Below the pieces are notes generated by a model. That model saw only the letters and a list, made by a program, of their open reading frames with translations. It was not told where the DNA came from and searched no databases. Shown here piece after piece: positions 31-28,619 of a stretch of 64,000 nt of DNA. The position numbers were made by a program, and so were the translations under genes. Position 1 is the first letter of the stretch. Every line of letters starts with the position of its first letter. The stretch lies in the NCBI RefSeq assembly GCF_013315695.1, contig NZ_CP054353.1. The stretch is one strand, 5' to 3'. This DNA comes from Escherichia coli. Its GTDB lineage: Bacteria; Pseudomonadota; Gammaproteobacteria; Enterobacterales; Enterobacteriaceae.

Positions 31-1041
31 ATGAGCGAATTGACAACAAATAAGAGCAACAGCTACCTGGAACAGGCGGCGATCCTGCTGCTGTGTCTGG
101 GCGAAGAGGCGGCGGCAACGGTGATGCAAAAACTCAGCCGTGAAGAAGTGGTGCGCCTGAGCGAAAACATGGCGCGGCTTTCCGGTGTCAAAACCAGCAT
201 GGCGCGCAAAGTGATCAACAACTTCTTTGATGAGTTCCGCGAACAGAGCGGGATCAATGGCGCGTCGCGATCTATGTTGCAGGGCATTCTCAACAAAGCG
301 CTAGGCACCGAGATCGCCAGCAGCGTGATCAACGGCATCTACGGCGATGAGATCCGCTCGCGGATGGCGCGACTGCAATGGGTGGAACCGCGCCAGCTGG
401 CGATGCTGATCTCCGAAGAGCATCTGCAATTGCAGGCAGTATTCCTCGCGTTTCTGACGCCGGAAATCTCGGCGGCGGTGCTCTCGTATCTCAATGAATC
501 GGTGCAAAACGAAATTCTCTATCGGGTGGCGAAACTCAACGACGTCAACCGCGACGTGGTGGATGAACTGGACAGGCTGATTGAACGCGGCCTGTCGGTG
601 CTTTCGGAGCACGGCTCGAAGGTGAAAGGCATCAAACAGGCGGCGGATATCGTCAACCGCTTCCAGGGCAACCAGCAGGTGATCCTCGACCAGATGCGCG
701 AGCGCGACGAAGACGTGCTGGAGCAGCTTCAGGATGAGATGTACGACTTCTTTATCCTCAGCCGCCAGAACGAAGAGGTGCGTCGACGTCTGCTCGACGA
801 AGTACCGATGGAAGACTGGGCGGTAGCGCTGAAAGGCACCGAAGCCCTGTTGCGCCGTTCCATTTACGCGGTGATGCCAAAACGTCAGGCGCAGCAACTG
901 GAAGCGATCACCGCGCGTCTGGGGCCGGTGCCGGTCAGCCGTATCGAACAGATCCGCCGCGAAATCATGGGCATTGCCCGTGAACTGGAAGAGGCGGGCG
1001 AAATTCAGCTACAGCTCTTTGCGGAACAGACGGCGGAGTAA
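31..1041 (+). CDS. lfiG: Flagellar rotor/switch protein, FliG family (Flag-2 LfiG)
   Basis: 336-aa ORF of FliG-like length and helical composition; first gene of a colinear fliG-H-I-J-like block; Flag-2 assignment follows from position upstream of dinB. Confidence 0.8.
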   Translation: MSELTTNKSNSYLEQAAILLLCLGEEAAATVMQKLSREEVVRLSENMARLSGVKTSMARKVINNFFDEFREQSGINGASRSMLQGILNKALGTEIASSVINGIYGDEIRSRMARLQWVEPRQLAMLISEEHLQLQAVFLAFLTPEISAAVLSYLNESVQNEILYRVAKLNDVNRDVVDELDRLIERGLSVLSEHGSKVKGIKQAADIVNRFQGNQQVILDQMRERDEDVLEQLQDEMYDFFILSRQNEEVRRRLLDEVPMEDWAVALKGTEALLRRSIYAVMPKRQAQQLEAITARLGPVPVSRIEQIRREIMGIARELEEAGEIQLQLFAEQTAE

Positions 1042-1043
1042 CC

Positions 1044-1754
1044 ATGACCATTGAAACACTGCGCGGGCGCTATCGCCTGCACCGTTTTCCGCCGCGCCAG
1101 CGTGCGGTGACCGGAGAACCGCTCACCGCCAGCATTAGCGCCGCCGATTACCAGCGCCAGTTGATGGACGGTTTTCAGGAAGGGCTGCAAAAAGGGTTTG
1201 CTCAGGGAATGACCGAAGGCCAGGAGCAGGGCTTTAGCGAAGGTCATCAACAAGGTTTTGCCGAGGGGCGACGCCAGGGCTACACCGAAGGCAGCCTCGC
1301 CGGGCAGCAGGAAGGGCGCAAACAGTTTGTTGACGCGGCACAGCCGCTGGAAGCCATCAGCGGAAAAGTGAACGACTTTCTCGCCCATATCGAACGCAAA
1401 CAGCGGGAAGATTTGCTGCAACTGGTGGAAAAAGTCACCCGCCAGGTGATCCGCTGCGAACTGGCGCTGCAACCGACGCAGTTGCTGGCGCTGGTGGAAG
1501 AGGCACTGGCGGCCTTCCCGGCAATGCCGGAGACCCTCCAAGTGATGCTAAGTACGGAAGAATTTAACCGCTTGCGCGACGCGGTGCCGGAAAAGGTCAG
1601 CGAATGGGGGCTGACGCCTTCGCCGGATCTGCCGCCGGGTGAATGCCGGGTGATCACCGATAAATCCGAACTGGATATCGGCTGCGAGCACCGCCTGGAA
1701 CAATGCATGACCGCGCTACAAGAGACGCTAACGCCGGAGTCACAGGGTGAGTGA
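1044..1754 (+). CDS. lfiH: Flagellar export ATPase regulator, FliH family (LfiH)
   Basis: 236 aa, Glu/Gln-rich repeats (EGxxxGF) typical of FliH; immediately precedes the FliI-like ATPase with 8-nt overlap. Confidence 0.7.
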   Translation: MTIETLRGRYRLHRFPPRQRAVTGEPLTASISAADYQRQLMDGFQEGLQKGFAQGMTEGQEQGFSEGHQQGFAEGRRQGYTEGSLAGQQEGRKQFVDAAQPLEAISGKVNDFLAHIERKQREDLLQLVEKVTRQVIRCELALQPTQLLALVEEALAAFPAMPETLQVMLSTEEFNRLRDAVPEKVSEWGLTPSPDLPPGECRVITDKSELDIGCEHRLEQCMTALQETLTPESQGE

Positions 1755-3084: not shown

Positions 3085-3086
3085 CC

Positions 3087-3521: not shown

Positions 3522-3523
3522 CC

Positions 3524-3976: not shown

Positions 3977-4079
3977 ATGTTTAAAAAATCGCGTTTTTTC
4001 GACATATCCCCAAAACATGTCGATGGCATAAACGTATTCCAACGACATGTTTAAAAATCGCATTTTATCGACATATCCC
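3977..4079. repeat. Two ~34-bp direct repeats (ATGTTTAAAAA-TCGACATATCCC) in the convergent intergenic region
   Basis: Copies at 3977-4010 and 4047-4079, each with an internal ACATGTCGA/TCGACAT inverted motif; the second overlaps the glycosyltransferase stop. Confidence 0.4.
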
Positions 4080-6521
4080 TGACGATTCCTTGCCCGCCAA
4101 CGCCTCCACAATCACCATCGTCGCCCGTTCTCCCGCCTTGCCATCCATAAACGCATCGCAATAGTGATGACGAATCTTCGTAAGCCGCGCCTGCACCGCC
4201 CCCCAGTCAAACGCCTCTGACAACAAGTAACGCAACTCTGCCATATCATGAGCCACCGGCAATATTTCGCGGATTTGCTGATCGGCGCTCTCCGGCGTGG
4301 AGTAGCTTTTCTCGCCGTCGAGCAATTCACTCATGCCCGGAAAGTCGAGCAGGATCACCCGCTTATCAACGTGGATAGCATCGAAAATAAAGCCGCTGTT
4401 ATCGGTCAGCACGTAATCGGCCTTTGCCAGCAGCGCCAGCGTGTGACGGGCGGAGTCGGTGCGCTGTTTTAAATGCCTGCGAGCCAGGGCCAGCGATGCA
4501 GCTTCTTCCGGGCGCGAGCAGGTGCCGTGGTGCAGTTTGCAAATCAGGTTCACATCATCGCTTAAGCGCCCCAATTTTTCTGCCCAGTGGGGCAGGGAGC
4601 TTAATGCGCCAAACGTTGGGGCGTAGAGTACGGTGGGTTTACGCTCGTCCAGTTTGATATTTTCCGGCAACGCGCGGTCGAACGTGGCGTTATGCCAGGC
4701 GTCGAAGCGCGGGTTGCCGACCACTATTGCGTTGCTGAGGTGCGCCAGCGCCTGCTGGCTGTAGTGGCTGTAACACAAAATGCGCTGATAAAAACGGTTC
4801 CAGTCGGCGTGGTTCCACGTTTCTTTGGCTAAGCCGTACATGGCGCGAATGTTCAGGGGGGAAAGGCCACTGAGCGCAGGCGTGTGATAGGGGCTGACCA
4901 GGCATTTTACTCGCTGACCGTGTGCCTGCATTTCTGACAGACGCATACCTTTAAGCTGCGGATCGTCGATGTTTTTCAGTGTTTCCAGCATCTCATCCAG
5001 AAACGGTTTAAACACGCGGTCATTGATCACCAGTGTGCAGCTCTGCCCCTGCGCCTGCAGGGCGGTGATGATTGGGCGGTAGAGCGCGTAGTGGAATGAG
5101 GTTTCCATAAAAAAGCCGATGGTATCGGCGATAGGTAATGTAGATGGCTTGGTGGCTACGGGTAACTTATTGAAGTAGTGGTTAATGTTATCAGTCGCTT
5201 TTTTCTCGATATCACTAAAGCCCGGTCGCTGATAACAAAGGCTCGGGTAACAGGCCAGCCATTTGTCGGTGCGCAGCAGCGGCTGCCAGCCGTCTTCCAG
5301 CGAATGCTCATCGTTGTTCATCTGCTGCGCCAGCTGCGGGTAGTAGCGGCGGTTCACCAGATAAGCGCACACTTTGCGGCAGTCCCGCGCGTGCACCAGC
5401 CCAGGCAAACTTTTTAGCATCGTTCCCTGCGAAATTTCGCCGCCGAGGATCATCACCTGCCAGGGAATTTTCGCCAGGCTCGCCAGCAGCGCGTTCAGCA
5501 CCTGAATATGTTTCTCCTGTTTGAGAATAACCGCGTCATCTTCCAGCAGCAGGTAGTTTTGCCAGCCGCGTTGTTGCGCCAGACGCAGTGCCTGCAAGTG
5601 TGATTGCTGGCGGCCCCGTTGACCGTTTTCATTTTCACTGGCGGCAAGGCGGGTGATCTTCTCAGGAGGAATATGCAGCAATGTGAGTTCTTCACGGATC
5701 TGCTGTAAGCGATCCGGGCGTTTATCCAGATTCAGCAGAACGATCTGATCGATCGCCTGATGATGAGTGGCGTTATGCAGACTCAGATAAGCATTGCGGA
5801 GCAGCGGATCGCGGACGATATCCGTAAGCGTCGCGTTTACTGGCGTGCTGGCCCCGAGAATAAAGTCTTTATCAAAGGTGTTGTGGCTGTGCGAGATACA
5901 CAAAATCGTGCGCTCGCCGGGCAGTTGTAGCGGGTTAACGCTGAAATTGTCGGTGAAACTTTTCTCTTCGCCTAAATTGCAATCGTCATCGTAGCGGTGC
6001 TTTTTCAGGTAGTTACGGTGATAGCAAAAGGTGCCGTTGAGGATGTTATGCGGGCCGAAGCTGCGGCTTTGAAAGATGCGATTGATGTGGCTGTACCAGA
6101 TGGGGATCTGGTCGGAACCGGAGATGAGCGCCCGGTTTTTTTGCATCATAGCGATGGTGTAAGAGATTTTATCTGCCGGGTAGTAGTCGTCATCGTCCAT
6201 GCAGAGGATGTATTCGCCGCGCGCCAGTTCGTTGAGCATATTGCGTTTTTTGCCCAGCGGCAGTTTTTCCGGGTGATGGATGTAGCGGATGTTGAAGGCT
6301 TCCGGTGTGCCATTGGTCAGGCGGTCGATGATGTGTTGATGGCTTTGCGGGGAATCGTCGAGGATGATGAGTTCGCGGCGGTCTGCCGGGTAGTCCTGAT
6401 AGCGGTACATATAAAGCAGGTACGGCAGGAATGCGCTGCGGTTCCAGGTTGGCGTGACGACGCTGACGGACGGTTTTTCGCGCTGGGTGGCGAGTGTTTT
6501 GATAATGGTTGGTGTTGGCAT
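4065..6521 (-). CDS. Large multidomain glycosyltransferase (GT-A family 2-like + GT25-like + CDP-glycerol glycerophosphotransferase-like domains)
   Basis: N-terminal VSVVTPTWNR and CMDDDDYY (DxD) GT-A motifs; central LLNLDKRPDR GT25-like motif; C-terminal TagB/TagF-like region. The ORF track begins at a GTG (6593) inside a repeat, so ATG at 6521 is preferred. Confidence 0.75.
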   Translation of the reverse strand: MPTPTIIKTLATQREKPSVSVVTPTWNRSAFLPYLLYMYRYQDYPADRRELIILDDSPQSHQHIIDRLTNGTPEAFNIRYIHHPEKLPLGKKRNMLNELARGEYILCMDDDDYYPADKISYTIAMMQKNRALISGSDQIPIWYSHINRIFQSRSFGPHNILNGTFCYHRNYLKKHRYDDDCNLGEEKSFTDNFSVNPLQLPGERTILCISHSHNTFDKDFILGASTPVNATLTDIVRDPLLRNAYLSLHNATHHQAIDQIVLLNLDKRPDRLQQIREELTLLHIPPEKITRLAASENENGQRGRQQSHLQALRLAQQRGWQNYLLLEDDAVILKQEKHIQVLNALLASLAKIPWQVMILGGEISQGTMLKSLPGLVHARDCRKVCAYLVNRRYYPQLAQQMNNDEHSLEDGWQPLLRTDKWLACYPSLCYQRPGFSDIEKKATDNINHYFNKLPVATKPSTLPIADTIGFFMETSFHYALYRPIITALQAQGQSCTLVINDRVFKPFLDEMLETLKNIDDPQLKGMRLSEMQAHGQRVKCLVSPYHTPALSGLSPLNIRAMYGLAKETWNHADWNRFYQRILCYSHYSQQALAHLSNAIVVGNPRFDAWHNATFDRALPENIKLDERKPTVLYAPTFGALSSLPHWAEKLGRLSDDVNLICKLHHGTCSRPEEAASLALARRHLKQRTDSARHTLALLAKADYVLTDNSGFIFDAIHVDKRVILLDFPGMSELLDGEKSYSTPESADQQIREILPVAHDMAELRYLLSEAFDWGAVQARLTKIRHHYCDAFMDGKAGERATMVIVEALAGKESSGICR

Positions 6522-6570
6522 GGTGTTTGGGTGAGTTAATGGGTGAATGTGATGAATGTGCGTGCTGATG

Positions 6571-6680
6571 CCCTCACCCCGACCCTCTCCCACAGGGAGA
6601 GGGAGAAAACCAGCGCCGATTTTAACACCGTGCTCGATCGGTTCCCTCGCCCCTTTGGGGAGAGGGTTAGGGGGAGGGGA
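6571..6680. repeat. GC-rich double palindromic intergenic element
   Basis: CCCTCTCCC-ACA-GGGAGAGGG (6583-6603) and CCCTCGCCCC-TTT-GGGGAGAGGG (6644-6666), flanked by CCCTCACCCC and GGGGGAGGGG. Confidence 0.45.
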
Positions 6681-6699
6681 AAAGCGCGCACAGAGCGAC

Positions 6700-7629: not shown

Positions 7630-7756
7630 AGGTGGCTTCCAGTCTTTATTACTTTGCGGAATGTGCAATAAGCGTGCCGGGAATTTTTGTAATCAAAAAC
7701 AAGGGATTGAGAATCAGGCGGAAAATCCGTTTCCGCGATGGGGGAAGGAATTGTCG

Positions 7757-8476: not shown

Positions 8477-8556
8477 CGCAACCTCGTCTCGGTATTTAGG
8501 TGGGTTACTCCAGTAAAGCGGTTAACAGGCGGCAAAACTTTAATCGCCTGCGCAAA

Positions 8557-9315: not shown

Positions 9316-9345
9316 TTAAAAAATGGCACGGCAATTGCTTAGCGT

Positions 9346-9713: not shown

Positions 9714-10145
9714 ATGTCATTTACTGATATCTATCAGATTTCCGGCTCGGCGATGACGGCGCAAACGCTACGTCTGAATACCGTCGCCAGTAACCTGGCG
9801 AATGCTAATGCACCTGCCAGCAGCGAGGCGCAGGCGTATAAAGCGCGCAGCCCGGTGTTTGCGACGGTGTATCACCACAGCTTGCTGGTGGGTACACATC
9901 GTCATGCCATTGATGGTGCCAGCGTGCAGGTGCAGGACGTGCTGCAAACCGGCGGGGCGGTGAAACGCTATGAACCGCATTCGCCGCTGGCGGATGCTAA
10001 CGGGGATGTCTGGTATCCCGACGTCAACGTGGTGGAACAGATGGCGGACATGATGTCGGCCTCGCGCGATTTTGAAACCAATGTCGATGTGCTCAACAAC
10101 GTGAAAAGTATGCAGCAAAGCCTGCTGAAACTGGGAGAAGCCTGA
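9714..10145 (+). CDS. lfgC: Flagellar rod protein FlgC family (LfgC)
   Basis: 143 aa; SNLANANAP N-terminal motif and C-terminal PLADANG...MVDMMSASR motifs; appears full length. Confidence 0.85.
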   Translation: MSFTDIYQISGSAMTAQTLRLNTVASNLANANAPASSEAQAYKARSPVFATVYHHSLLVGTHRHAIDGASVQVQDVLQTGGAVKRYEPHSPLADANGDVWYPDVNVVEQMADMMSASRDFETNVDVLNNVKSMQQSLLKLGEA

Positions 10146-10858
10146 TGAATACCCTGGCGCTGAATGCGCAATCGCCGCAGCCGACCGCCACGGCGGAAAG
10201 CAACAACGTGGCGGCCAGCGACACGACAAGCAGCAGCGATAGCTCGCCCGTTGATACTTTCCTGACGCTGTTTGTCGCTGAGATCCAAAACCAGGACCCG
10301 ACCGACCCGACCGACGCCACCGAATATATCGACCAGCTTTCGTCAATGGCGCAGGTGGCGATGATGGAAGAGATGAGCGTGCAGGCGAATACCAACGCGG
10401 TGTTGATGAGCAACATTCAGGTGATGGCGCTCGGCAACCTGGTGGGCGACGACATTATGGTGCAGACCACCGCCTTGCAGGTGAGTGACCAGACCATTAA
10501 CGGTCGCGCCACGCTGGATGACGCCTGTACCACCGCCGATCTCCACTTTACCGATGCTGCGGGCGATGACTACACCGTCTCGCTGATCCCGGAAGGGAGT
10601 TCGTCGGTTGGGCCAGGCCAGGTCGATTTCTCGATTAATCCGGCGGATTACGGCATCCCGCCGGGCGATTACGACGTCTCGGTGGTGACCAACACCGGGG
10701 AAGAAGAGGTGCCGATTGAAGTCTCCGGCGAAGTGGAAGATGTACGCATCCCGCTCGACGGCAGCTCTCCGGTGCTCAACGTTGCAGGTGTGGGCGAAGT
10801 GCCGTTCACCATGATTAGCCAGTTTGGCGTACCCGATGCCGACAGTGATGTGGCGTGA
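10145..10858 (+). CDS. lfgD: Flagellar hook capping protein FlgD family (LfgD)
   Basis: 237 aa; DTFLTLFVAEIQNQDPTDP N-terminal FlgD motif. Confidence 0.8.
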   Translation: MNTLALNAQSPQPTATAESNNVAASDTTSSSDSSPVDTFLTLFVAEIQNQDPTDPTDATEYIDQLSSMAQVAMMEEMSVQANTNAVLMSNIQVMALGNLVGDDIMVQTTALQVSDQTINGRATLDDACTTADLHFTDAAGDDYTVSLIPEGSSSVGPGQVDFSINPADYGIPPGDYDVSVVTNTGEEEVPIEVSGEVEDVRIPLDGSSPVLNVAGVGEVPFTMISQFGVPDADSDVA

Positions 10859-10869
10859 TGTCTGGTGCC

Positions 10870-10975
10870 AAATTGCCTGATGCGCTTCGCTTATCAGGCC
10901 TACATGAAACTGCAATGTATTGAATCTGCATGGTTTTGTAGGCCGGACAAGGCGTTCACGCCGCATCCGGCAAAA
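10870..10975. repeat. REP/BIME element (two REP units)
   Basis: GCCTGATGCGCTTCGCTTATCAGGCCTAC and GTAGGCCGGACAAGGCGTTCACGCCGCATCCGGCA palindromic units. Confidence 0.7.
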
Positions 10976-11017
10976 CAACGGGCACGCAGTCAAAATTTGA
11001 ATTAACAGGACGAAACA

Positions 11018-12220
11018 ATGAGTTATGAAATTGCCGCAACGGGGTTGAATGCCGTTAACGAACAACTGGACGGGATCAGTAACAACATCGCCAACGCCGG
11101 AACGGTAGGCTATAAGTCGATGACCACCCAGTTTTCAGCCATGTATGCCGGAAGTCAGGCGATGGGCGTCAGCATGGCAGGCACCGCGCAAAGTATTTCG
11201 CGCGGCGGTTCGCTGGTATCCACCGGTAACGCGCTGGATCTGGCGATTAACGACGACGGCTTTTTTGTTACCTGCGACAGCGCGGGCAACATTTCTTATA
11301 CCCGCGCCGGATCGTTTGAAACCGACAAAAACGGCTATATCGTCAACGCCTCAGGCGCTTATTTGCAGGGCTATCCGGTCGATGACACGGGCACTCTGCA
11401 AACCGGTACAGTCACCGATATCCAGATCAAAACTGGCAATATTCCGGCGCAGGCCAGCAGCAGCCTGACCTTTACCGCCAACTTCGATGCCAGCGACGAC
11501 GCTATCGACCGCACTACCGTACCGTTCGACGCGACCAACAGCAGCTCGTATACCGACAGCTACACCACCACGGTGTACGACTCATTAGGTAACGAACACT
11601 CGGTATGCCAGTACTTCACCAAAACCAGCGACAACACCTGGGAAGTGCAGTACACCTTCGACGGTCAGCAGCAGACCGGCGTTCCGGCGACGACGTTAAC
11701 CTTCGACCCGAACACCGGAAAACTGACCTCGCCAACTACGCCGCAGACCATTGAGTTTCAGACCGACGCCGCCGCGCCCATCGATTTAACCGTCGATTAC
11801 TCCACCTGTACGCAATACGGTTCTGAATTTTCTGTCACCACCAACGCCGCCGACGGCTACGCCTCCGCGACTCAGAACGGTGTGCAGGTCGATGACGATG
11901 GCAAAGTTTACGCCACCTACAGCAACGGCGAGCGCATGTTGCAGGGCCAGGTGGTGCTGGCGACTTTCCCGAATGAAAACGGCCTGGAGGCAGTGAGCGG
12001 CACCGCGTGGGTACAAACCGGGGAATCCGGCACCCCGCTGATTGGCGTTCCCGGCTCCGGCACCTGCGGTACGCTGTCGTCCGGCGTGCTCGAAAGCTCT
12101 AACGTCGATATCACCAGCGAGTTAGTCAACCTGATGACCGCCCAGCGTAACTATCAGGCCAACACCAAAGTTATCGCTACCAGCACGCAGCTCGATGACG
12201 CGCTGTTCCAGGCAATGTAA
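11018..12220 (+). CDS. lfgE: Flagellar hook protein FlgE family (LfgE)
   Basis: 400 aa; conserved N-terminal (GISNNIANAGTVGYK) and C-terminal (SNVDITSELVNLMTAQRNYQAN) rod/hook motifs. Confidence 0.9.
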   Translation: MSYEIAATGLNAVNEQLDGISNNIANAGTVGYKSMTTQFSAMYAGSQAMGVSMAGTAQSISRGGSLVSTGNALDLAINDDGFFVTCDSAGNISYTRAGSFETDKNGYIVNASGAYLQGYPVDDTGTLQTGTVTDIQIKTGNIPAQASSSLTFTANFDASDDAIDRTTVPFDATNSSSYTDSYTTTVYDSLGNEHSVCQYFTKTSDNTWEVQYTFDGQQQTGVPATTLTFDPNTGKLTSPTTPQTIEFQTDAAAPIDLTVDYSTCTQYGSEFSVTTNAADGYASATQNGVQVDDDGKVYATYSNGERMLQGQVVLATFPNENGLEAVSGTAWVQTGESGTPLIGVPGSGTCGTLSSGVLESSNVDITSELVNLMTAQRNYQANTKVIATSTQLDDALFQAM

Positions 12221-12957: not shown

Positions 12958-12964
12958 CCGCACA

Positions 12965-13003
12965 TCGTAGGCCGGATAAGGCGTTCACGCCGCATCCGGC
13001 AAC
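12965..13003. repeat. REP element
   Basis: GTAGGCCGGATAAGGCGTTCACGCCGCATCCGGCA unit between the flgF-like and flgG-like genes. Confidence 0.7.
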
Positions 13004-13035
13004 TGCGGCCCAAAAATAACACGGAATTTACCACC

Positions 13036-13903: not shown

Positions 13904-14569
13904 GTGAAAAATTATCTCTGGCTGGTGGCGCTGCTTCCCCTGCTTAGCGGGTGTGAATCGCAGGCCATTCTGGTCAAAAAAGACGACGCATACTTTGCGC
14001 CACCGAAAACCGAAGCACCGCCTCCGGCAGACGGGCGTGCCGGGGGCGTGTTTGAAACCGGCTACAACTGGTCGCTAACTGCCGACCGGCGGGCTTACCG
14101 CGTGGGCGATATCCTGACGGTGATCCTCGAAGAATCCACCCAGTCGAGCAAACAGGCGAAAACCAACTTCGGCAAAAGCAACACCGTCGATATCGGCGCA
14201 CCGACCATTTTTGGTCACACCAAAGATAAGCTTTCCGGCTCCATCGATGCCAACCGCGACTTTGACGGCAGCGCCACTTCCCAGCAGCAGAACAGCCTGC
14301 GCGGGGAGATCACGGTTTCCGTCCATGCGGTGCAGCCCAACGGCATCCTGGAAATTCGCGGCGAGAAATGGCTCACCCTCAACCAGGGCGATGAGTACAT
14401 CCGTTTAAGCGGTCTGGTGCGCGCCGACGATATCCAGAACGACAACTCGGTTTCCTCCCAGCGGATCGCCGATGCCCGCATCTCCTATGCCGGACGCGGC
14501 GCGTTAAGCGACGCCAACGCCGCAGGCTGGCTGACGCGGCTGTTTAACCATCCTCTGTTCCCGATTTAA
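13904..14569 (+). CDS. lfgH: Flagellar L-ring lipoprotein FlgH family (LfgH)
   Basis: GTG start at 13904 gives a lipoprotein signal peptide with lipobox LLSGC; the ORF-track start at 13829 lies inside a REP element. Confidence 0.85.
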
Positions 14570-15684
14570 TGCCGGAGAGTGCAATGCAAAACTGGATAAA
14601 GGCCGCAGTTATCGCCCTAAGCCTGGCGCTGCCCGGCGTGGCGCTGGCGCAATCGCTGGAGTCGCTGGTCAACGTACAAGGCGTGCGTGAAAACCAACTG
14701 GTCGGCTACAGCCTGGTGGTCGGCCTCGACGGTACTGGCGATAAAAACCAGGTCAAATTCACCAACCAGACCATCACCAATATGCTGCGCCAGTTTGGCG
14801 TGCAATTGCCGAATAAAATCGACCCGAAGGTGAAAAATGTCGCGGCGGTGGCAGTGAGCGCCACGCTGCCACCGATGTACTCACGCGGGCAGACTATTGA
14901 TGTCACCGTCTCGTCGATTGGTGATGCCAAAAGTATTCGTGGCGGCACCTTGCTGCTGACCCAACTGCACGGCGCAGATGGCGAGGTTTATGCCCTGGCA
15001 CAGGGCAGCGTGGTGGTGGGCGGGATGAACGCCACCGGGGCCAGCGGTTCCAGTGTGACGGTTAATACGCCAACTGCCGGGTTAATTCCCAACGGCGCGA
15101 CGGTGGAGCGCGAGATCCCCAGCGATTTTCAGATGGGCGACACCATCACGCTCAACCTGAAACGCCCGTCGTTTAAAGACGCCAACAACATTGCGGCGGC
15201 GATCAACGCCTCGTTTGGCGGCATTGCCACGGCGCAGAGTTCCACCAACGTCACCGTGCGTGCGCCCACCAGCCCCGGCGCGCGGGTGGCATTTATGTCG
15301 CAACTGGATGATGTACAGGTGCAGGCAGAGAAAATCCGCGCCCGCGTGGTGTTTAACTCGCGTACCGGCACGGTGGTGATGGGCGATGGCGTTGCGCTGC
15401 ATGCGGCGGCGGTGTCGCACGGCAGTTTGACCGTCTCGATTAACGAAACCAGCAACGTCAGCCAGCCGAATGCCTTTGCAGGCGGGCGCACGGCGGTAAC
15501 GCCGCAGAGCAATATCGCGGTGAATCATGCGCGCCCGGGCGTGGTGAGTTTGCCGGAGTCGAGCAGCCTGAAAACGCTGGTCAATGCGTTGAACAGTTTG
15601 GGCGCGACGCCGGACGACATTATGTCGATTTTACAGGCGCTGCATGAGGCGGGCGCGCTGGATGCCGACCTGGAGGTGATCTGA
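14569..15684 (+). CDS. lfgI: Flagellar P-ring protein FlgI family (LfgI)
   Basis: 371 aa with signal peptide (alternative start MQNWIK at 14584). Confidence 0.9.
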
Positions 15685-15999: not shown

Positions 16000-16335
<336 letters not shown>

Positions 16336-16403
16336 TACGGAACTTAAGAATCCCCATCTTCACGCCGCTTTTAACCGGCACGATTTACCGGTAAGGATCC
16401 AAC

Positions 16404-19718: not shown

Positions 19719-19968
19719 TGTTATTGAAAATCAATCAAATGAGGTTGTCGTAAAAAATCATTTCAGTGCAGAATATGCTGTAACTCTGCGGGTTAAAAAA
19801 GGAATGAAATGGCCACTCTCAAGCAACTGATGGATAAGCAAAGCCCTGAAAGTCGTAGGCGAATAATAAAAAAAGCAGAACGACTCCGCCAAACTGTCAT
19901 TAATAAAAAGCTAGAGTTACCAATAACTAAACCTATCAGCAATTCCGATTGATTTCATTCGGGATTTT

Positions 19969-20005
19969 CGTAGGCCGGATAAGACGCCTTTAGCGTCGCA
20001 TCCGG
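19969..20005. repeat. REP element
   Basis: GTAGGCCGGATAAGACGCCTTTAGCGTCGCATCCGGCA unit. Confidence 0.7.
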
Positions 20006-20021
20006 CATATATTGGCACTCA

Positions 20022-20864
20022 TCAGCATTTCTGCACAGTATTTAACAACTTCTCCAAATTCTGATACATCGCGCTATTAATATCGCTGTTCTGCCAACCT
20101 TCCACATTAAAGGTTAATTGCCAGCTGCCGTTGCACTGGTTACGCAGAACAATATCGCTTTCCAGTCGGTTACGAACATATTTATAATAGGTTGTCATTG
20201 TCATATTATGCGCTGACAATAAATTATCGAGTTTGTCTTTTCCTGGTGCGAGGGTTTGTGATAGTAACGGTACGGAATTATTTTCTCCAGCAGAAGTTAA
20301 ATGAAATATTTTTATTCTTGGACTGTTAATTGACTCTTTTACCAGTTGCGGGGCGTCAGGTGTACTTTTCAAGTGTGAATACCCCACGGTCGAGCCAATA
20401 AATATAACAGCCGCGGTCAACGCTAACCCCATCAGTCCTTTATGTTTTTTTCTAACTGGTACAGGCGGTGTTGTCGAAGATATCTCTTCTGACACAGTTT
20501 CCTGTACCTGGTCGGTAATAATCAGCGCTTCCGCAGGCGATAACTCCGGCAAAGACACATACTCTTTATTGCACAAGTAACCTTTCTTCGGAATTGTTTT
20601 AATAATGTTCTGTTGTTTGCCATCATCGTCGATAGCAACGCGCAACGCATGGATCGCCGTCGGCAGGCTGTTACCGCCGACTATGCGGTTCTTCCATACT
20701 TCGGCACATAAATAAGATCGCGATAAAACCACATCGGCATTTTTTGCTAATGTTTCCAGCAAAATAAAATGGTATTCGCCGAGACGACGTGTTTCACCCG
20801 TTTCGCAATGTATTAAGGCATTAAGCGACGGGTCCATCCGCCAGTTGTTGATAATAATACTCAT
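20022..20864 (-). CDS. Membrane-anchored winged-helix transcriptional regulator (ToxR/CadC-like) in LafZ position
   Basis: N-terminal OmpR/PhoB-type winged-helix region, one hydrophobic TM segment (GLMGLALTAAVIFIGSTVGY), periplasmic C-terminal domain; alternative start at 20915. Confidence 0.6.
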   Translation of the reverse strand: MSIIINNWRMDPSLNALIHCETGETRRLGEYHFILLETLAKNADVVLSRSYLCAEVWKNRIVGGNSLPTAIHALRVAIDDDGKQQNIIKTIPKKGYLCNKEYVSLPELSPAEALIITDQVQETVSEEISSTTPPVPVRKKHKGLMGLALTAAVIFIGSTVGYSHLKSTPDAPQLVKESINSPRIKIFHLTSAGENNSVPLLSQTLAPGKDKLDNLLSAHNMTMTTYYKYVRNRLESDIVLRNQCNGSWQLTFNVEGWQNSDINSAMYQNLEKLLNTVQKC

Positions 20865-21350
20865 AGTTGAGTTTACCTTAGCAAGGGATAAATGTTTCCT
20901 GATAGTGCTTTGCATAAAGCACAGTCTTATACGTCCCTGAGAAGATGATTTTTCTGCGTGATAATTAATATTTTATGGTAATAGGATTATTCTTAATCAC
21001 TATATGGCGTGGAAATGTAACGAAATGACAGGACAGGTACAATAGCCAAATGTGTACTATTTGCAACGCAATGTAAATTTTGGCATCAGTACATTGAGAA
21101 CAAAACGCGATAATTGATGGCAATCTTAACTATATCAAGCATTTGATAAAGACATATTTTGATACCTGGCCATGTGGCAGATATTGCTAATAATCTTTTT
21201 ATCTGAATTTAAACTCTGCTTTTTTTTAGCTAAAAGTGGCATCGGATAATACGTGGCGAAAAAATTTTAACGGCGATTTTAAGTTTGCTCCTGAGGTGTC
21301 GTTTTTACAGGGTATCGAAACGAAAACGATTAATCCCAAGGAGCAGTATC

Positions 21351-22265
21351 ATGTTATCTATTAACACCAATAACGCCTCAATGGCCGCCGTTAATGCAAT
21401 CAGCAAAAGCAGCTCTTCTCTGTCTACATCTATGGAACGCCTGGCAACGGGTAACCGGATTAACTCTTCTGCCGATGACGCAGCGGGCAAACAAATTGCT
21501 AACCGTCTGACAGCACAGTCCAGCGGTATGGGTGTGGCGCTGAGCAACATCAATGATGCCACCGCGATGCTGCAAACCGCCGACAGCATGTTCGACGAAA
21601 TGTCTGATGTGCTGGGTCGTATGAAAGACCTGTCAACTCAGGCAGCGAACGGCACCTACAGCGACGACGACCTGCAGGCGATGCAGGACGAATACGACGA
21701 ACTGGGTCAGCAGATGTCTGACATGCTGCAAAACACCACTTACGGCGGTACCAACCTGTTCGGTGTTTCCGGCACCAGCAACACCGGTACTGACGGCCTG
21801 TTCCAGAGCGCGGTAACTTTCCAGGTGGGCGCGGAATCTTCCGACACCATGACCGTGAACATTTCAAGCCAACTGAACACCCTGGTGACCGATCTTTCTT
21901 CTATCAGCAACTCCTTTAGTGCGGATCAGGCTGACACCACGGGCACCGCAGGTGTTTCTGGCGGTACTGAGCTGACCGCGTCTGGCTCGGCTAACCAGAT
22001 GATCACCAGCATCTCTACCGCGATGGATGATGTTTCGCAGATCCAATCCAAGCTGGGTGCGTCTATTAACCGTCTGAACGACACTGCCAACAACCTGACC
22101 AGCATGCAGAACAACACGGAAGTCGCTATCGGTAACATCATGGATACCGACTACGCGACGGAAGCGTCCAACATGACCAAACAACAGGTGCTGATGCAGA
22201 CCGGCATCACTATGCTGAAACAGTCCAACAGCATGTCCAGCATGGTTTCCAGCCTGCTGCAGTAA
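21351..22265 (+). CDS. lafA: Lateral-type flagellin (LafA)
   Basis: 304 aa; canonical flagellin N-terminus (MLSINTNNASM...LATGNRINSSADDAAG); AAGGAG SD 8 nt upstream of the ATG. Confidence 0.9.
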   Translation: MLSINTNNASMAAVNAISKSSSSLSTSMERLATGNRINSSADDAAGKQIANRLTAQSSGMGVALSNINDATAMLQTADSMFDEMSDVLGRMKDLSTQAANGTYSDDDLQAMQDEYDELGQQMSDMLQNTTYGGTNLFGVSGTSNTGTDGLFQSAVTFQVGAESSDTMTVNISSQLNTLVTDLSSISNSFSADQADTTGTAGVSGGTELTASGSANQMITSISTAMDDVSQIQSKLGASINRLNDTANNLTSMQNNTEVAIGNIMDTDYATEASNMTKQQVLMQTGITMLKQSNSMSSMVSSLLQ

Positions 22266-22267
22266 TG

Positions 22268-22306
<39 letters not shown>

Positions 22307-22312
22307 ACGAAC

Positions 22313-22341
22313 AACACCGCCTGCGGGCGGTGTTGTTCTTT
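22313..22341 (+). terminator. Rho-independent terminator after lafA
   Basis: Hairpin AACACCGCC-TGCG-GGCGGTGTT followed by a T-rich tract (GTTCTTT). Confidence 0.55.
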
Positions 22342-22470
22342 CTGCGGCAGGCCTTTTTCCGCCAGACCGGAAACACCATTTCCGCCCCTTTTTCAATTTA
22401 TTGATTATTCACATAAAAATTATTGGCACGCCTTTTGCCAATAACCTGACATCGTTATCCGGAGTCATCA

Positions 22471-23787
22471 ATGATCAACCCAAGAACCATTGCGCAAGAA
22501 ATCGCCTATGCGGATGTTGCCACTCAGGCGGCAAACTTGCAGGAGAAGCAGAGCGAGCTGGATGCGGAAAGCAGCGGCCTGGACTCGCTCAGCTCAGCGT
22601 TGAGCGATTTTCAGAGCGCCGTTGACGCGCTGAACAGCGATACTGACGGCCCGGTGACGTTTGCCGCCACCAGCAATAATGACTCGGCGACCGTTTCCGC
22701 CAATTCCCAGGCGCAGGCGGGAAGCTACTCATTTTTCGTTGAGCAACTGGCACAGGGGCAGCAAACCACGTTCAGTATGGGCGACGACGCCTTTTCCGCT
22801 ACCGGCACCTTCGAACTGACGATGGGCGGCAGCACCATGGATATCGATCTGTCGGCGGCGGATCAAAACGGTGACGGCGACGGTTTTATCGACGCCAGTG
22901 AACTGGTGAATGCGATTAACGACTCTGATGACAATCCGGGCGTGTCGGCGGCACTGGTAAAAACCGACGGCACCACCACGATTATGCTCACCTCCGATAG
23001 CACCGGGGCGCAGAGCGCATTTTCGGTGAGCGTAACGGGGCATGACGCCAGCAACGACAGCGCCAGCGCGCCTGTTGCTACGGATGTTTCCTCCGCCCAG
23101 GACGCGATTATTCATCTCGGCAGCGCCACGGGGCCAGAGATCACTAATAGCAGCAATACCTTTGATGATGTGATCCCCGGCGTCACCATGACTTTCACCG
23201 AAGTCAGCGATTCTGACAGCGATCTCACTACCTTTAACATCAGCGAAGATTCCAGCGCCAGCCAGGAGAAAGTACAGACCTTTGTCGATGCATATAACAC
23301 CTTGATTGATACGGTTGATTCGCTGACCACCCACGGTGATGACAGTACCAGCGCCGGGGTATTTGCAGGCGACGCCGGACTCAGCTCACTGGCAAACCAG
23401 CTCGATGACATCGCCCATGCCAGCTACAACGGCGTGTCGATTGTCGACTATGGCATTACGCTCGATTCTCACGGCCATTTACAGATTGATTCAGACCAGT
23501 TCAACGACGCGATGAAGAGCGATCCCGACGGCCTGACCTCTATTTTCGTCGGCGATAACAGCATGGTGGCGCAGATGGACAGCCTTATTGACACCTATAC
23601 CGACTCCAGCAACGGCATCATCACCCTGCGCCAGCAGAACATTGACGATCAGATGAGCAAAATTCAGGACGAAGGCGATCAGCTTACCGATACCTATAAC
23701 GCCAACTACGACCGTTATCTGGAGGAGTACACCAACACGCTGGTTGAGGTGTACACCATGAAAGCCAGCATGGCGGCATTCGCGTAA
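22471..23787 (+). CDS. lafB: Flagellar filament cap protein, FliD family (LafB)
   Basis: 438 aa; FliD-like N-terminal coiled-coil region and overall composition. Confidence 0.8.
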   Translation: MINPRTIAQEIAYADVATQAANLQEKQSELDAESSGLDSLSSALSDFQSAVDALNSDTDGPVTFAATSNNDSATVSANSQAQAGSYSFFVEQLAQGQQTTFSMGDDAFSATGTFELTMGGSTMDIDLSAADQNGDGDGFIDASELVNAINDSDDNPGVSAALVKTDGTTTIMLTSDSTGAQSAFSVSVTGHDASNDSASAPVATDVSSAQDAIIHLGSATGPEITNSSNTFDDVIPGVTMTFTEVSDSDSDLTTFNISEDSSASQEKVQTFVDAYNTLIDTVDSLTTHGDDSTSAGVFAGDAGLSSLANQLDDIAHASYNGVSIVDYGITLDSHGHLQIDSDQFNDAMKSDPDGLTSIFVGDNSMVAQMDSLIDTYTDSSNGIITLRQQNIDDQMSKIQDEGDQLTDTYNANYDRYLEEYTNTLVEVYTMKASMAAFA

Positions 23788-24518: not shown

Positions 24519-25603
24519 ATCCGGCATTGCTTGCCACGCTCGGAACACTTGCGGAAACGGCGTCGCTGAAAGCGGATATTTTACCGCCGGTGAGTAGTGA
24601 AAACGCGCCCGCGTTTACCCTGCCGAAAATGGCGGTCGCGGCGGTGGCGGAGCGCGTTCATAGCGCTAAAACCAGTCAGCATCAGGCGACGCGCCCGCAG
24701 GAGAACGATCCGGTGGCGATGCAGGCGCTAATGGCGCTGTTACTTCCGCAACCTGCCGCGCCGCATCAGGACACGCCGCAGCCGCGAAACGTCGCAACAT
24801 CGCCGGTTATCCAGCAATTGACGAAAGCGGTGGTGCAAAACGCGCCGCAACGCCCGACGCAGCAGCAGGAACTCACGTCGTTGCCGCCGCAGTTGCAGGA
24901 ACTCACGTCGTTGCCGCCGCAGTTGCAGGAACTGATCGGTCAGTTGCCGCAGGCGAAACCCGAACAGCAGGCCAGACTGGCGACTTACGCCAGTGACGAT
25001 TTACATGCCATTGCGCCGACGCAGCCGCGCGTCTCAACACCGCCAGCTCGCCCGAAACCTGAACTACCCCGTGTGAACGCGCGCCCGCAGGTCGAGCGTA
25101 AAACGGAAAAAGTGCCGGACAGCGAACCGGTTATTGCGCGTGCGGTGTTGCAGGTTAAGACGCCGGATCTGGTCAGCGAACATCATGAGATTGTCGCCAA
25201 ACCAGCCACGCTTTCGATGGACGAACTGGGCGAAAAACTGACGACGCTGTTGAAAGATCAGATCCACTTTCAGCTCAACAAACAACAGCAGATCTCCACC
25301 ATCCGTCTCGATCCACCGTCGCTTGGCAAGCTTGAGATCGCCGTACAACTCGATAACGGCAAACTGATGGTGCACATCGGCGCGAACCAAAGTGAAGTTT
25401 GCCGCGCGTTACAACAGTTTAGCGACGATCTCTGCCAGCATTTGACGGCGCAAAATTTTATGGAGGTGAACGTACAGGTTTCCTCCGAAGGGCAGTCGCA
25501 GCAACAACAGTCGGGCCATCAGCAGGAAGAGGTGAGTGCCGCCTTACAGCTTGATGATGCGCCTCAATTTCAACAGAACGAATCCGTTTTGATCAAAGTG
25601 TAA
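24515..25603 (+). CDS. lafE: Hook-length control protein, FliK family (LafE)
   Basis: 362 aa; Pro/Gln-rich linker with tandem repeat and C-terminal Flg_hook-like domain (LGKLEIAVQLDNGKLMVHI). Confidence 0.7.
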   Translation: MNPALLATLGTLAETASLKADILPPVSSENAPAFTLPKMAVAAVAERVHSAKTSQHQATRPQENDPVAMQALMALLLPQPAAPHQDTPQPRNVATSPVIQQLTKAVVQNAPQRPTQQQELTSLPPQLQELTSLPPQLQELIGQLPQAKPEQQARLATYASDDLHAIAPTQPRVSTPPARPKPELPRVNARPQVERKTEKVPDSEPVIARAVLQVKTPDLVSEHHEIVAKPATLSMDELGEKLTTLLKDQIHFQLNKQQQISTIRLDPPSLGKLEIAVQLDNGKLMVHIGANQSEVCRALQQFSDDLCQHLTAQNFMEVNVQVSSEGQSQQQQSGHQQEEVSAALQLDDAPQFQQNESVLIKV

Positions 25604-25610
25604 AGGCAAT

Positions 25611-26078: not shown

Positions 26079-26097
26079 TCACCAGGCGGATATAAAC

Positions 26098-26817: not shown

Positions 26818-26829
26818 AGTGAAGAAATC

Positions 26830-27693
26830 ATGCAAAAAATATTAGGTTTACTGGTGGTGCTCGGCTGCGTATTTGGCGGTTATTTTGAAGCGGGCGGCCA
26901 ATTAGTGGCTATCTGGCAGCCTGCAGAGATAGTTATTATTTTAGGTGCTGGTTTCGGGGCGATGATTATTGGGAACCCGAAACATGTGCTGAAAGAGATT
27001 GCCCATCAAATTAAAGGCGTGATCAGTAAAAAACAGCTCGGGCCGGAGTTTCAGCGCCAGCTATTAATGTGCCTGTATGAGTTGCTTGAAATGGTACAAA
27101 ACGGCGGTCTGCGGATGTTGGATCAGCATATTGAGCAGCCGGAAGAGAGTACCGTTTTCCAGAAATACCCGCTGGTGTTAACCCAGAAGCGGCTGGTGAC
27201 TTTTATTGCCGATAACTTTCGCCTGATGGCGATGGGTAAAATCGACGCCCATGAACTGGAAGGCATTCTCGATCAGGAGCTGGATACCGCCGAAGAGTCG
27301 CTGCTAACGCCGTCACGCTCGCTGCAACGGACCGCCGAAGCGATGCCGGGATTTGGTATTTGTGCAGCAGTGTTGGGCATCATCATTACCATGCAGTCGA
27401 TTGACGGCTCTATCGCCCTGATCGGCCTGAAAGTGGCGGCAGCGCTGGTGGGGACGTTTTTAGGCGTGTTTATCTGCTACTGCCTGATGGATCCGCTTGC
27501 CAACGCCATGGAACAACAGGCGCGGGCGGAACATTCGCTGCTGGAGTGTGTGCGTACCGTGCTGGTGGCCCAGGCGGGCGGCAAACCGACGCTGTTGGCG
27601 GTGGACGCCGGGCGTAAGTTGCTGCATCTGGCGTCCAAACCGACCTTCGCCAACCTCGACGCGTGGGTGAATGCGATGCTGGAGCAAGAATAA
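26830..27693 (+). CDS. lafT: Flagellar stator protein MotA family (LafT)
   Basis: 287 aa polytopic membrane protein with a MotA/TolQ/ExbB-type channel region. Confidence 0.85.
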   Translation: MQKILGLLVVLGCVFGGYFEAGGQLVAIWQPAEIVIILGAGFGAMIIGNPKHVLKEIAHQIKGVISKKQLGPEFQRQLLMCLYELLEMVQNGGLRMLDQHIEQPEESTVFQKYPLVLTQKRLVTFIADNFRLMAMGKIDAHELEGILDQELDTAEESLLTPSRSLQRTAEAMPGFGICAAVLGIIITMQSIDGSIALIGLKVAAALVGTFLGVFICYCLMDPLANAMEQQARAEHSLLECVRTVLVAQAGGKPTLLAVDAGRKLLHLASKPTFANLDAWVNAMLEQE

Positions 27694-27695
27694 GC

Positions 27696-28619
27696 ATGAG
27701 AAAGACGGGCAACCGCCGCGAGCGTGGGGCAAAAACCACCATCGTCCGGCGGCAGATCAAAAAGAATCATGCCGGGCATCATGGCGGGGCGTGGAAGGTG
27801 GCGTTCGCCGACTTTACCCTGGCGATGATGGCGCTATTTATGACGCTGTGGATTGTCAACAGCGTCAGTAAATCCGAGCGTGAAAGCATTATCGCCGCGC
27901 TGCACGGGCAGTCGATTTTTAATGGTGGAGGGCTGTCGCCGTTAAATAAAATCAGCCCGTCTCATCCGCCAAAACCTGCCACCGTGGCGGTGCCGGAAGA
28001 GACGGAGAAAAAAGCGCGTGACGTCAATGAGAAAACGGCGCTGCTGAAGAAGAAATCCGCTACTGAGCTTGGCGAGCTGGCGACCAGTATCAACACTATT
28101 GCCCGTGATGCACATATGGAAGCGAATCTGGAGATGGAGATTGTTCCCCAGGGACTGCGCGTGCTGATTAAAGATGACCAGAACCGCAATATGTTTGAAC
28201 GCGGCAGCGCACAGATTATGCCGTTCTTTAAAACTTTGCTGGTGGAGTTAGCGCCGGTTTTTGATTCGCTCGACAATAAGATCATCATCACCGGGCATAC
28301 CGATGCGATGGCCTACAAAAACAATATCTACAACAACTGGAACCTTTCGGGTGACCGCGCGCTTTCGGCTCGTCGGGTGCTGGAAGAGGCAGGAATGCCG
28401 GAAGATAAAGTGATGCAGGTGAGCGCAATGGCGGACCAGATGCTGCTGGATGCCAAAAATCCGCAAAGCGCGGGCAACCGGCGCATTGAGATTATGGTGC
28501 TGACTAAAAGCGCGTCCGATACGCTGTATCAATACTTTGGTCAGCATGGGGATAAAGTGGTGCAGCCGCTGGTGCAAAAGCTGGATAAGCAGCAGGTACT
28601 TTCACAGCGAACGCGCTAG
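27696..28619 (+). CDS. lafU: Flagellar stator protein MotB family (LafU)
   Basis: ATG at 27696 immediately after the lafT stop; N-terminal TM helix and C-terminal OmpA-like peptidoglycan-binding motif (NWNLSGDRALSARRV). Confidence 0.85.
   Translation: MRKTGNRRERGAKTTIVRRQIKKNHAGHHGGAWKVAFADFTLAMMALFMTLWIVNSVSKSERESIIAALHGQSIFNGGGLSPLNKISPSHPPKPATVAVPEETEKKARDVNEKTALLKKKSATELGELATSINTIARDAHMEANLEMEIVPQGLRVLIKDDQNRNMFERGSAQIMPFFKTLLVELAPVFDSLDNKIIITGHTDAMAYKNNIYNNWNLSGDRALSARRVLEEAGMPEDKVMQVSAMADQMLLDAKNPQSAGNRRIEIMVLTKSASDTLYQYFGQHGDKVVQPLVQKLDKQQVLSQRTR

Follow-up and report, generated by a model that had tools for sequence, protein, structure and literature searches.

A 64,000-nucleotide stretch of the Escherichia coli contig NZ_CP054353.1 (RefSeq assembly GCF_013315695.1), here termed the window, carries at positions 31 to 28619 what are very probably two thirds, on the right-hand side, of the Flag-2 locus already known in E. 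coli, the gene set for a second flagellar system, with all of the visible genes open. The segment is made up of the end of cluster 1, variable region 1 (VR1), cluster 2, a reduced variable region 2 (VR2), and cluster 3. It comprises 32 uninterrupted genes, from lfiG, which starts at exactly position 31, to lafU, which ends at exactly 28619; 29 of these are flagellar, and the remaining three are assigned to flagellin modification. Taking the locus as a whole, we hold with high confidence that the best explanation is an intact part of Flag-2, predicted to encode a lateral-type flagellum, which is most likely silent under ordinary laboratory conditions.

The genes run in the order lfiG, lfiH, lfiI, and lfiJ (plus strand), a TagD-like cytidylyltransferase gene (plus), a glycosyltransferase gene and lafV (both minus), lfgN, lfgM, and lfgA (minus), lfgB to lfgL (plus), lafW (plus), lafZ (minus), and lafA to lafU (plus). 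All 25 genes of cluster 2 (lfgNMABCDEFGHIJKL) and cluster 3 (lafWZABCDEFSTU) keep the canonical order, orientation, and frame. An earlier sequence-only reading of this DNA had recognized it as Flag-2, and that identity is borne out by matches to NCBIfam flagellar models, by the gene order, and by the gene lengths relative to E. coli strains 042 and EC958. The same reading had placed the genes upstream of dinB, and indeed dinB follows lafU directly, beginning 71 nucleotides (nt) past its end, and is itself followed by yafN, yafO, and yafP; the right border of Flag-2, at dinB, is present in the window. The reading was also right that only the part from lfiG onward lies inside the window, with positions 3 to 53 coding for the last 16 codons of LfiF.

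At the same chromosomal site K-12 was said to keep only remnants, and in K-12 MG1655 the interval between rayT and dinB does hold lfhA and lafU pseudogenes only. This is exactly the lfhA/lafU deletion scar that De Maayer et al. described in all of the E. coli genomes without Flag-2, the locus being found in 24 of 100 (PMC6993521). In a larger set of 5426 complete E. coli genomes, 766 (14%) have 80% or more of window positions 1 to 25000 covered in one place. The G+C content is 55.3% for positions 31 to 28619 versus 50.5% for the flank from 28620 to 41000; a Flag-2 G+C content above the genome background has been reported for Escherichia (PMC6993521).

Integrity of the Flag-2 genes

The full-length status of the genes was checked in three ways: with NCBIfam models, gene by gene against the locus of E. 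coli 042 (RefSeq NC_017626, 284.7 to 323.2 kb), and against that of the sequence type 131 (ST131) strain EC958. The NCBIfam flagellar models were matched from first to last position, and most of the scores exceed the curated cut-offs (Table 1). Relative to 042, 27 of the 32 genes are of equal length, with a protein identity of 89 to 100%, and four differ by in-frame changes, namely, the glycosyltransferase (818 versus 823 amino acids [aa]), lfgD (+3), lafE (+9), and lafS (+1), the increment in lafE being due to one extra copy of a 30-bp tandem repeat. The fifth, lfgC, differs in length because it is the 042 copy that is frameshifted, by an extra GC after nucleotide 45; this 2-bp insertion is absent in the window and likewise in strains MS 21-1, AF3, and EC958. 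The comparison with EC958, spanning 29 genes from lfiG to lafF, gave the same picture, with proteins 89 to 100% identical. The claim that every flagellar open reading frame (ORF) in the window is full length, lfgC included, is upheld by these data: the ORFs run from start to stop at the lengths of their orthologues, and, save for the frameshifted 042 lfgC, the remaining flagellar length differences are all in frame.

Three near-identical E. coli genomes were used for further comparison. AF3, a blood isolate from the UK, shows 10 substitutions relative to the window over 28.6 kb, and MSB1_4I (NZ_LR898874), the nearest genome on the right side, is 100% identical over window positions 25001 to 50000. 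Neither is the source of the window, which differs from AF3 by these substitutions and from MSB1_4I in having no deletion in lfgI. Synteny and RefSeq annotation in these two strains and in MS 21-1 agree with the gene calls made in the window.

Relation to described Flag-2 and lateral flagellar systems

The Flag-2 locus in enteroaggregative strain 042 was reportedly described by Ren et al. in 2005 (J Bacteriol 187:1430). The window resembles it in the chromosomal site by dinB, in gene order, in the content of VR1 (TagD-like enzyme, glycosyltransferase, and lafV), and in the sigma-54 boxes of lfgB and lafB. Unlike 042, the window has an intact lfgC, a VR2 whose relE/helix-turn-helix (HTH) pair is reduced to a 90-bp remnant, an expanded array of bacterial interspersed mosaic elements (BIMEs) between lfgJ and lfgK, a 15-bp in-frame deletion in the glycosyltransferase gene, and an extra repeat unit in lafE.

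Intact Flag-2 loci, including an intact lfgC, have been published for EC958 (PMC4637896) and for PCN033, a porcine extraintestinal pathogenic E. coli (ExPEC) strain (PMC4578781), both of them complete, and intact loci are also reported in PMC6993521. The window shares the intact lfgC with these two strains, the two consensus sigma-54 sites with PCN033, and the absence of the VR2 toxin-antitoxin pair with EC958. In contrast to EC958, it carries a different allele (synonymous divergence [dS] of about 0.2), and EC958 possesses extra hypothetical genes in VR1 and an 812-aa glycosyltransferase. Further, EC958 has been assayed, and was found to be without LafA expression (PMC4637896), whereas the strain of the window is known here from its genes.

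Further parallels are offered by the lateral systems of Vibrio parahaemolyticus, Aeromonas hydrophila, and Plesiomonas shigelloides, which have the same gene repertoire and laf/lfg nomenclature. These systems have the LafK/sigma-54/LafS hierarchy that is predicted for the window, and, in common with it, LafTU stators of the proton type, a short lateral flagellin, and a FlgJ with one domain only (PMC4481668). Those systems have been shown to build lateral flagella and to drive swarming (PMC4481668), whereas the E. coli locus is known from its genes. They differ further in that the primary flagellum of E. coli (Flag-1) is peritrichous rather than polar and in that the enterobacterial loci have features of their own, namely, lafW, lafZ, and the cargo of VR1.

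Promoters and predicted regulatory cascade

Exact matches to the sigma-54 consensus TGGCAC-N5-TTGC occur twice in the 64 kb, versus 0.24 expected by chance, and these two lie upstream of lfgB and lafB (Table 1). Both are kept in 042 despite substitutions around them, and the identical pair of sites, at lfgB and lafB, has been reported for PCN033 (PMC4578781). Boxes with one or two mismatches are uninformative as a class, with 83 matches versus 87 expected; the two single-mismatch boxes listed in Table 1, upstream of lafV and lfgK, are accordingly entered as tentative. Searches of the DNA preceding lafA, lfgM, lfgK, and lafT for canonical FliA-type sigma-28 promoters, written as TAAAG-N14-GCCGATAA and with the spacer allowed to vary, gave no convincing intergenic match. 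Only -35-like boxes were seen, a perfect TAAAGTTT upstream of lfgM (8535 to 8542, minus strand) and TTAAGTTT upstream of lafA (21279); no fitting -10 part goes with either, and the combined pattern was arrived at post hoc, so that we do not claim them as sigma-28 promoters, although the enterobacterial LafS consensus may differ. The sigma factor gene lafS and the anti-sigma factor gene lfgM are both present at full length, with lafS placed inside the lafB operon.

In the model outlined for V. parahaemolyticus in PMC4481668, LafK together with sigma-54 activates class II operons, including the gene of the lateral sigma-28 factor, which in turn activates late genes. By analogy with this and with the Aeromonas lateral-flagellum model as given there, and from the gene content, we propose that the locus would encode a proton-driven, lateral-type flagellum, with its own type III export apparatus, which lies only partly in the window. 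It would supply the rod, the hook, the L and P rings, the hook-filament junction proteins, a short flagellin of 304 aa, the cap, and the LafTU stators. Transcription would begin with the sigma-54 activator LafK, encoded outside the window, acting at the TGGCAC-N5-TTGC boxes of lfgB and lafB; the lafB operon would then yield LafS, which, after export of LfgM, would activate the late genes, lafA among them. The VR1 enzymes are predicted to decorate the flagellin with glycan, glycerol phosphate, or methyl groups. Chemotaxis genes are absent from the locus, as is the muramidase domain from its FlgJ, so that the system would presumably have to borrow these functions from its host.

Selection, expression, and possible decay

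The ratio of nonsynonymous to synonymous divergence (dN/dS) is 0.073 relative to 042 (8524 codons) and 0.067 relative to EC958, with a dS of about 0.2, and falls to 0.00 to 0.05 in the core genes, those of the rod, hook, rings, flagellin, and stators. The three alleles (window, 042, and EC958) thus differ at about 20% of synonymous sites with their gene lengths kept. As a separate observation, the synonymous divergence of the Flag-2 alleles, at about 0.19 to 0.20, is higher than that of the neighboring dinB, at 0.13.

Several observations weigh against taking the locus as an intact and working flagellar determinant. The 5'-truncated and dead lafU remnant of K-12 has a dN/dS of 0.023 relative to the window (dS, 0.22). 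Hence dN/dS fails as a test of present-day function, as it cannot separate a living gene from a recently dead one; its low value says nothing about the present, most of the divergence having preceded the loss. It would appear that nearly all of the divergence of the K-12 lafU predates the deletion or that alleles have been shuffled by recombination. Further, the sister strain MSB1_4I has lost 243 bp of lfgI (window positions 15394 to 15636) between two direct repeats of 10 bp, GCGCTGCATG, and has a shortened lfiE (246 versus 342 nt); these lesions suggest weak current selection in this lineage, one member of which thus shows Flag-2 at an early stage of decay. In the one direct test in E. coli that was found, EC958, whose locus is equally intact, was grown at 28 and 37°C in LB broth or soft agar and gave neither LafA on western blots nor Flag-2 motility (PMC4637896). 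Upstream of lafA, the search for the canonical sigma-28 promoter (TAAAGTTT-N11-GCCGATAA) gave no match, and for that reason we only infer the sigma-28 step on this gene. Finally, the window leaves out the left third of Flag-2, with the genes lfhAB, lfiRQPNM, lafK, and lfiEF (given as 14 genes, or in another count as 9 plus most of lfiF), which includes the master regulator lafK, so that completeness in this strain, though likely, is judged from its relatives. By analogy with EC958, the locus is most likely silent under ordinary laboratory conditions; it may be expressed under particular conditions or may be heading toward decay. The suggestion of the sequence-only reading that the strain may have a functional second flagellum is compatible with the intact ORFs, the sigma-54 boxes, and the intact upstream halves of the relatives, and goes no further than a possibility; taken as a whole, that reading is partly supported.

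One account of these data, to which we would give somewhat less than an even chance, is that the locus is a cryptic relic, intact in sequence, transcriptionally silent, and without phenotype, which persists only until it decays, as it has been lost in most E. coli. Silencing might come about, for example, through the AT-rich lafZ-lafA region, with its G+C content of 39.8%, or for want of a signal that activates LafK. The lack of LafA expression and of Flag-2 motility in EC958 (PMC4637896) fits such an account, as do the loss of lfhA to lafU by deletion in about 76 to 86% of E. coli (PMC6993521 and the count of 766 retaining genomes given above), the frameshift in the 042 lfgC, the two lesions in MSB1_4I, and the low dN/dS of the dead K-12 lafU, by which a low ratio need not mean current function. 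It sits less well with the intactness of 32 of 32 genes over 28.6 kb, as long-term neutrality should have introduced frameshifts into a coding target of about 25 kb, and with the three diverged alleles (dS of about 0.2) that have kept both gene lengths and sigma-54 boxes. Nor is it what one would expect from the retention of all 39 core genes in 78% of enterobacterial Flag-2 loci (PMC6993521) or from the expression or function of Flag-2 in Yersinia enterocolitica and Plesiomonas, according to work cited in PMC11420993 and PMC4481668. A working second flagellum, expressed conditionally when LafK and sigma-54 respond to some signal other than those so far tried in E. coli, such as low temperature, a surface or viscous setting, or a cue sensed by the ToxR-like LafZ, is on the same evidence a possibility that we advance only tentatively.

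A break in the locus outside the window, by deletion, insertion sequence (IS), or point lesion in lfhA to lfiF or in lafK, would leave the genes seen here orphaned. The start of the window falls within the final 16 codons of lfiF, and loss of cluster 1 and disruption by IS elements are documented in other taxa (PMC6993521 and PMC11420993), to which the shortened lfiE of MSB1_4I may be added. Such a break is nevertheless improbable, given that lfhA to lfiF stand next to rayT in AF3, with its 10 single-nucleotide polymorphisms over 28.6 kb, and equally in MS 21-1 and MSB1_4I. In AF3 these genes are all annotated without pseudogene flags and adjoin rayT, and in MS 21-1 they are likewise annotated as intact, with lfhA abutting rayT; lafK is annotated as intact (987 nt) in all three strains. 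It is still harder to credit that the locus serves mainly as a device for protein export or adhesion and not for locomotion, with flagellar type III secretion of LafA or other substrates affecting colonization or immune signaling. Such a role has been proposed speculatively (PMC6993521 and PMC5422975), and the full export gate is encoded in the relatives, in addition to FliHIJ in the window. However, the dN/dS lies at only 0.00 to 0.05 for lafT, lafU, lfiG, and the genes of the hook, rings, and filament, a conservation that would be unexpected if secretion alone mattered, and neither VR1 nor VR2 of the window holds an effector-like cargo gene.

Features of the individual regions

The features of the Flag-2 segment and its right border are collected in Table 1.

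Table 1. Flag-2 genes, promoter boxes, and repeats in the window, with the evidence for each
Feature	Position	Strand	Evidence
lfiF 3' end (MS-ring gene), last 16 codons and stop	1..53 (coding 3-53)	+	Translation EVLRQWITSNERIDNK* identical to the C-terminus of AF3 FliF
lfiG, FliG-like rotor/switch, 336 aa	31..1041	+	TIGR00207 fliG, residues 13-328 vs model 12-329/338, 202.8 bits (below cut-off 226.7); 99.4% identical to 042, equal length
lfiH, FliH, 236 aa	1044..1754	+	NF009925, 316.9 bits (cut-off 192), whole model covered
lfiI, FliI export ATPase, 445 aa	1747..3084	+	NF005535, 772 bits (cut-off 715); Walker A GSGVGKS in translation
lfiJ, FliJ, 144 aa	3087..3521	+	TIGR02473, 57 bits (cut-off 50.45)
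VR1 TagD-like glycerol-3-phosphate cytidylyltransferase, 134 aa	3524..3928	+	TIGR01518, E 5e-33, below cut-off
VR1 glycosyltransferase, 818 aa: N-terminal GT2 and C-terminal CDP-glycerol glycerophosphotransferase-like	4065..6521	-	Pfam PF00535 (E 1.4e-17, residues 20-134), PF04464 (E 2.3e-5, residues 597-723)
lafV, FliB-like putative flagellin lysine-N-methylase, 309 aa	6700..7629	-	NF038110, 39.1 bits (below cut-off 85), model 106-367/373 only; no Pfam match; same length in 042
Tentative sigma-54-like box CGGCACGCTTATTGC, 1 mismatch, upstream of lafV	7665..7679	-	Kept in 042
lfgN, FlgN-like chaperone, 142 aa	7757..8185	-	Gene at identical position annotated FlgN by RefSeq in MS 21-1 and AF3; 042 length equal; no NCBIfam match
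lfgM, anti-sigma-28 factor, 92 aa	8198..8476	-	TIGR03824, 51.4 bits (cut-off 40.75)
lfgA, P-ring chaperone, 245 aa	8557..9294	-	TIGR03170, 122 bits (cut-off 54.65)
Perfect sigma-54 box TGGCACGGCAATTGC, 37 nt upstream of lfgB	9324..9338	+	Exact match, kept in 042
lfgB, proximal rod, 111 aa	9376..9711	+	TIGR01396, 104 bits (cut-off 59)
lfgC, proximal rod, 143 aa, intact	9714..10145	+	TIGR01395, 131.7 bits (cut-off 102.1), model 3-136/137
lfgD, hook cap, 237 aa	10145..10858	+	NF007198, E 1e-64, model 10-217/218
lfgE, hook, 400 aa	11018..12220	+	NF005286, 532.9 bits (cut-off 467), full length
lfgF, rod, 245 aa	12220..12957	+	NF009280, 316.6 bits (cut-off 210)
lfgG, distal rod, 261 aa	13036..13821	+	TIGR02488, 351.8 bits (cut-off 252.75); protein 100% identical in 042 and EC958
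lfgH, L-ring lipoprotein, 221 aa, GTG start	13904..14569	+	NF009072, 432.6 bits (cut-off 323), model 1-220/220
lfgI, P-ring, 366 aa, full length	14584..15684	+	NF003676, 450.5 bits (cut-off 300), model 2-344/344
lfgJ, rod-binding domain only, 99 aa	15684..15983	+	Matches only the N-terminal rod-binding part of FlgJ models, no muramidase domain; 042 length equal
BIME/REP array, 117-bp unit in 2.6 copies, lfgJ-lfgK spacer	16000..16310	.	Tandem Repeats Finder; Rfam naRNA4 (RF02564) at 16073-16150 and 16191-16267, 87.9 and 75.1 bits
Tentative sigma-54-like box TGGCACCCGGTTTAC, 1 mismatch, 66 nt upstream of lfgK	16324..16338	+	042 identical from third base (GGCACCCGGTTTAC); first base at edge of BIME indel
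lfgK, hook-associated protein 1, 458 aa	16404..17780	+	TIGR02492, 352.5 bits (cut-off 170.75)
lfgL, hook-associated protein 3, 309 aa	17795..18724	+	TIGR02550, 195.5 bits (cut-off 127.2)
lafW, Flag-2-specific, putative hook-associated, 325 aa	18741..19718	+	95.7% identical to 042 orthologue, equal length; name per PMC6993521; no NCBIfam match
VR2 remnant, first ~30 codons of HTH antitoxin gene (90 bp)	19809..19898	+	Alignment to 042; pseudogene annotation in MS 21-1 and MSB1_4I
lafZ, ToxR/CadC-like winged-helix membrane regulator, 280 aa	20022..20864	-	Weak CadC and OmpR-type matches; 042 length equal
lafA, lateral flagellin, 304 aa	21351..22265	+	NF033376 lat_flg_LafA_1, 664.7 bits (cut-off 440), model 1-304/304
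Perfect sigma-54 box TGGCACGCCTTTTGC, 32 nt upstream of lafB	22424..22438	+	Exact match, kept in 042
lafB, FliD filament cap, 438 aa	22471..23787	+	NF005955, E 1.4e-45, residues 22-432
lafC, FliS chaperone, 130 aa	23810..24202	+	TIGR00208, 77 bits (cut-off 53.75)
lafD, FliT-position gene, 103 aa	24207..24518	+	042 length equal; no NCBIfam match
lafE, FliK-like hook-length control, 362 aa	24515..25603	+	C-terminal domain matches TIGR02514; 30-bp tandem repeat at 24854-24950
lafF, FliL-like, 155 aa	25611..26078	+	NF005435, E 1e-9; 100% identical to 042
lafS, sigma-28 family sigma factor, 239 aa	26098..26817	+	NF009091, 447 bits (cut-off 339), model 1-233/233
lafT, MotA-type stator, 287 aa	26830..27693	+	TIGR03818, 374.5 bits (cut-off 303.8), model 1-281/282
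lafU, MotB-type stator, 307 aa, full length	27696..28619	+	NF005273 LafU, 579.6 bits (cut-off 383)
dinB, DNA polymerase IV, right flank	28690..29745	+	NF002677, 547 bits

VR1 lies between lfiJ and lfgN, and its content matches the commonest published type, in which a TagD-like enzyme, a fusion of GT2 and CDP-glycerol glycerophosphotransferase-like domains, and lafV occur together; the VR1 TagD has itself been described (PMC6993521). The 15-bp in-frame deletion in the glycosyltransferase gene, seen relative to 042 and MS 21-1, recurs in AF3 (a gene of 2457 nt) and in MSB1_4I. Nothing in LafV corresponds to the first 100 or so positions of the FliB model, and the gap between lafV and lfgN is only 127 bp. 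This short form is common to 042 and EC958 and is therefore not a lesion private to the strain of the window; the putative assignment of LafV as a methylase is a weak one. In the spacer between lafV and the glycosyltransferase gene (6522 to 6699) there are palindromes rich in G+C that repeat a pattern of the type CCCTCTCCC...GGGAGAGGG.

The lfgJ-lfgK spacer of 042 has a single BIME unit, indicating that the array has expanded in the window. An Rfam scan of positions 1 to 32000 gave only matches to naRNA4, which derives from repetitive extragenic palindromic (REP) elements. Copies of REP also occur in the spacers at 10858 to 11018, 12957 to 13036, and 22265 to 22471, and in the relatives the REP-associated transposase gene rayT stands at the left edge of the locus.

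In VR2 (19719 to 20021), the relE/HTH toxin-antitoxin pair of 042 is deleted apart from the remnant, which is followed by a REP element. A low-GC tract (19719 to 21350), which takes in lafZ and the 486-bp lafZ-lafA spacer, has a G+C content of 39.8% versus 55.3% for the whole locus and is a candidate region for silencing of lafA by an H-NS-type mechanism. The dN/dS of lafZ, at 0.20 to 0.34, is the highest relative to EC958 and among the highest relative to 042. LafU retains what we take to be the conserved aspartate of the FADF motif of MotB, and LafT what are presumably the PGFG and DPL motifs of MotA. The truncated lafU pseudogene of K-12 is without the first 168 nt.

Flanking regions

Between lafU and dinB, MS 21-1 carries an insertion with genes for a ClbS/DfsB-family protein and for the transposase of ISEc53, which is absent from the window, AF3, and MSB1_4I. 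Further to the right in the window, a tRNA-Thr(CGT) gene (40784 to 40859) is followed by a tyrosine integrase gene (41025 to 42239) and then by a phage-like island of about 12 kb, the whole region spanning 40784 to 53630; the island includes an antirepressor gene, an Ash-family gene, a TOPRIM/DUF927 primase gene (47567 to 50326), and a gene for a DNA-ejection protein (52212 to 53630); the gene names in this island were taken from the annotation of the identical stretch of MSB1_4I. Two IS1 elements in direct orientation, starting at about 53623 and 57126, flank ykgR, ykgM, and ykgO (regions 53623 to 57850 and 57883 to 64000). As annotated in MSB1_4I, ecpC, the gene of the common-pilus usher, is cut short at the 5' end by the second of these elements, and ecpR, ecpA, and ecpB are seemingly missing, in view of which the E. 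coli common pilus (ECP) operon is probably inactive.

Significance

The locus is an ordinary example of a system that has already been described, and the finding adds nothing beyond the published literature. Its value lies mostly in correct annotation, which places the strain in the minority of E. coli, roughly one genome in six, that keep a second flagellar gene set. To the long-recognized question of the expression and role of Flag-2 in E. coli, the window contributes one further intact allele and no new handle. Were the conditionally expressed flagellum to prove real, it would offer swarming-type motility or an advantage in colonization, with the decoration of LafA by glycerol phosphate and glycan as a part of its function. 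The lineage itself provides a natural comparison, in which the intact loci of AF3 and MS 21-1 can be set against that of MSB1_4I, with its lfgI deletion and shortened lfiE.

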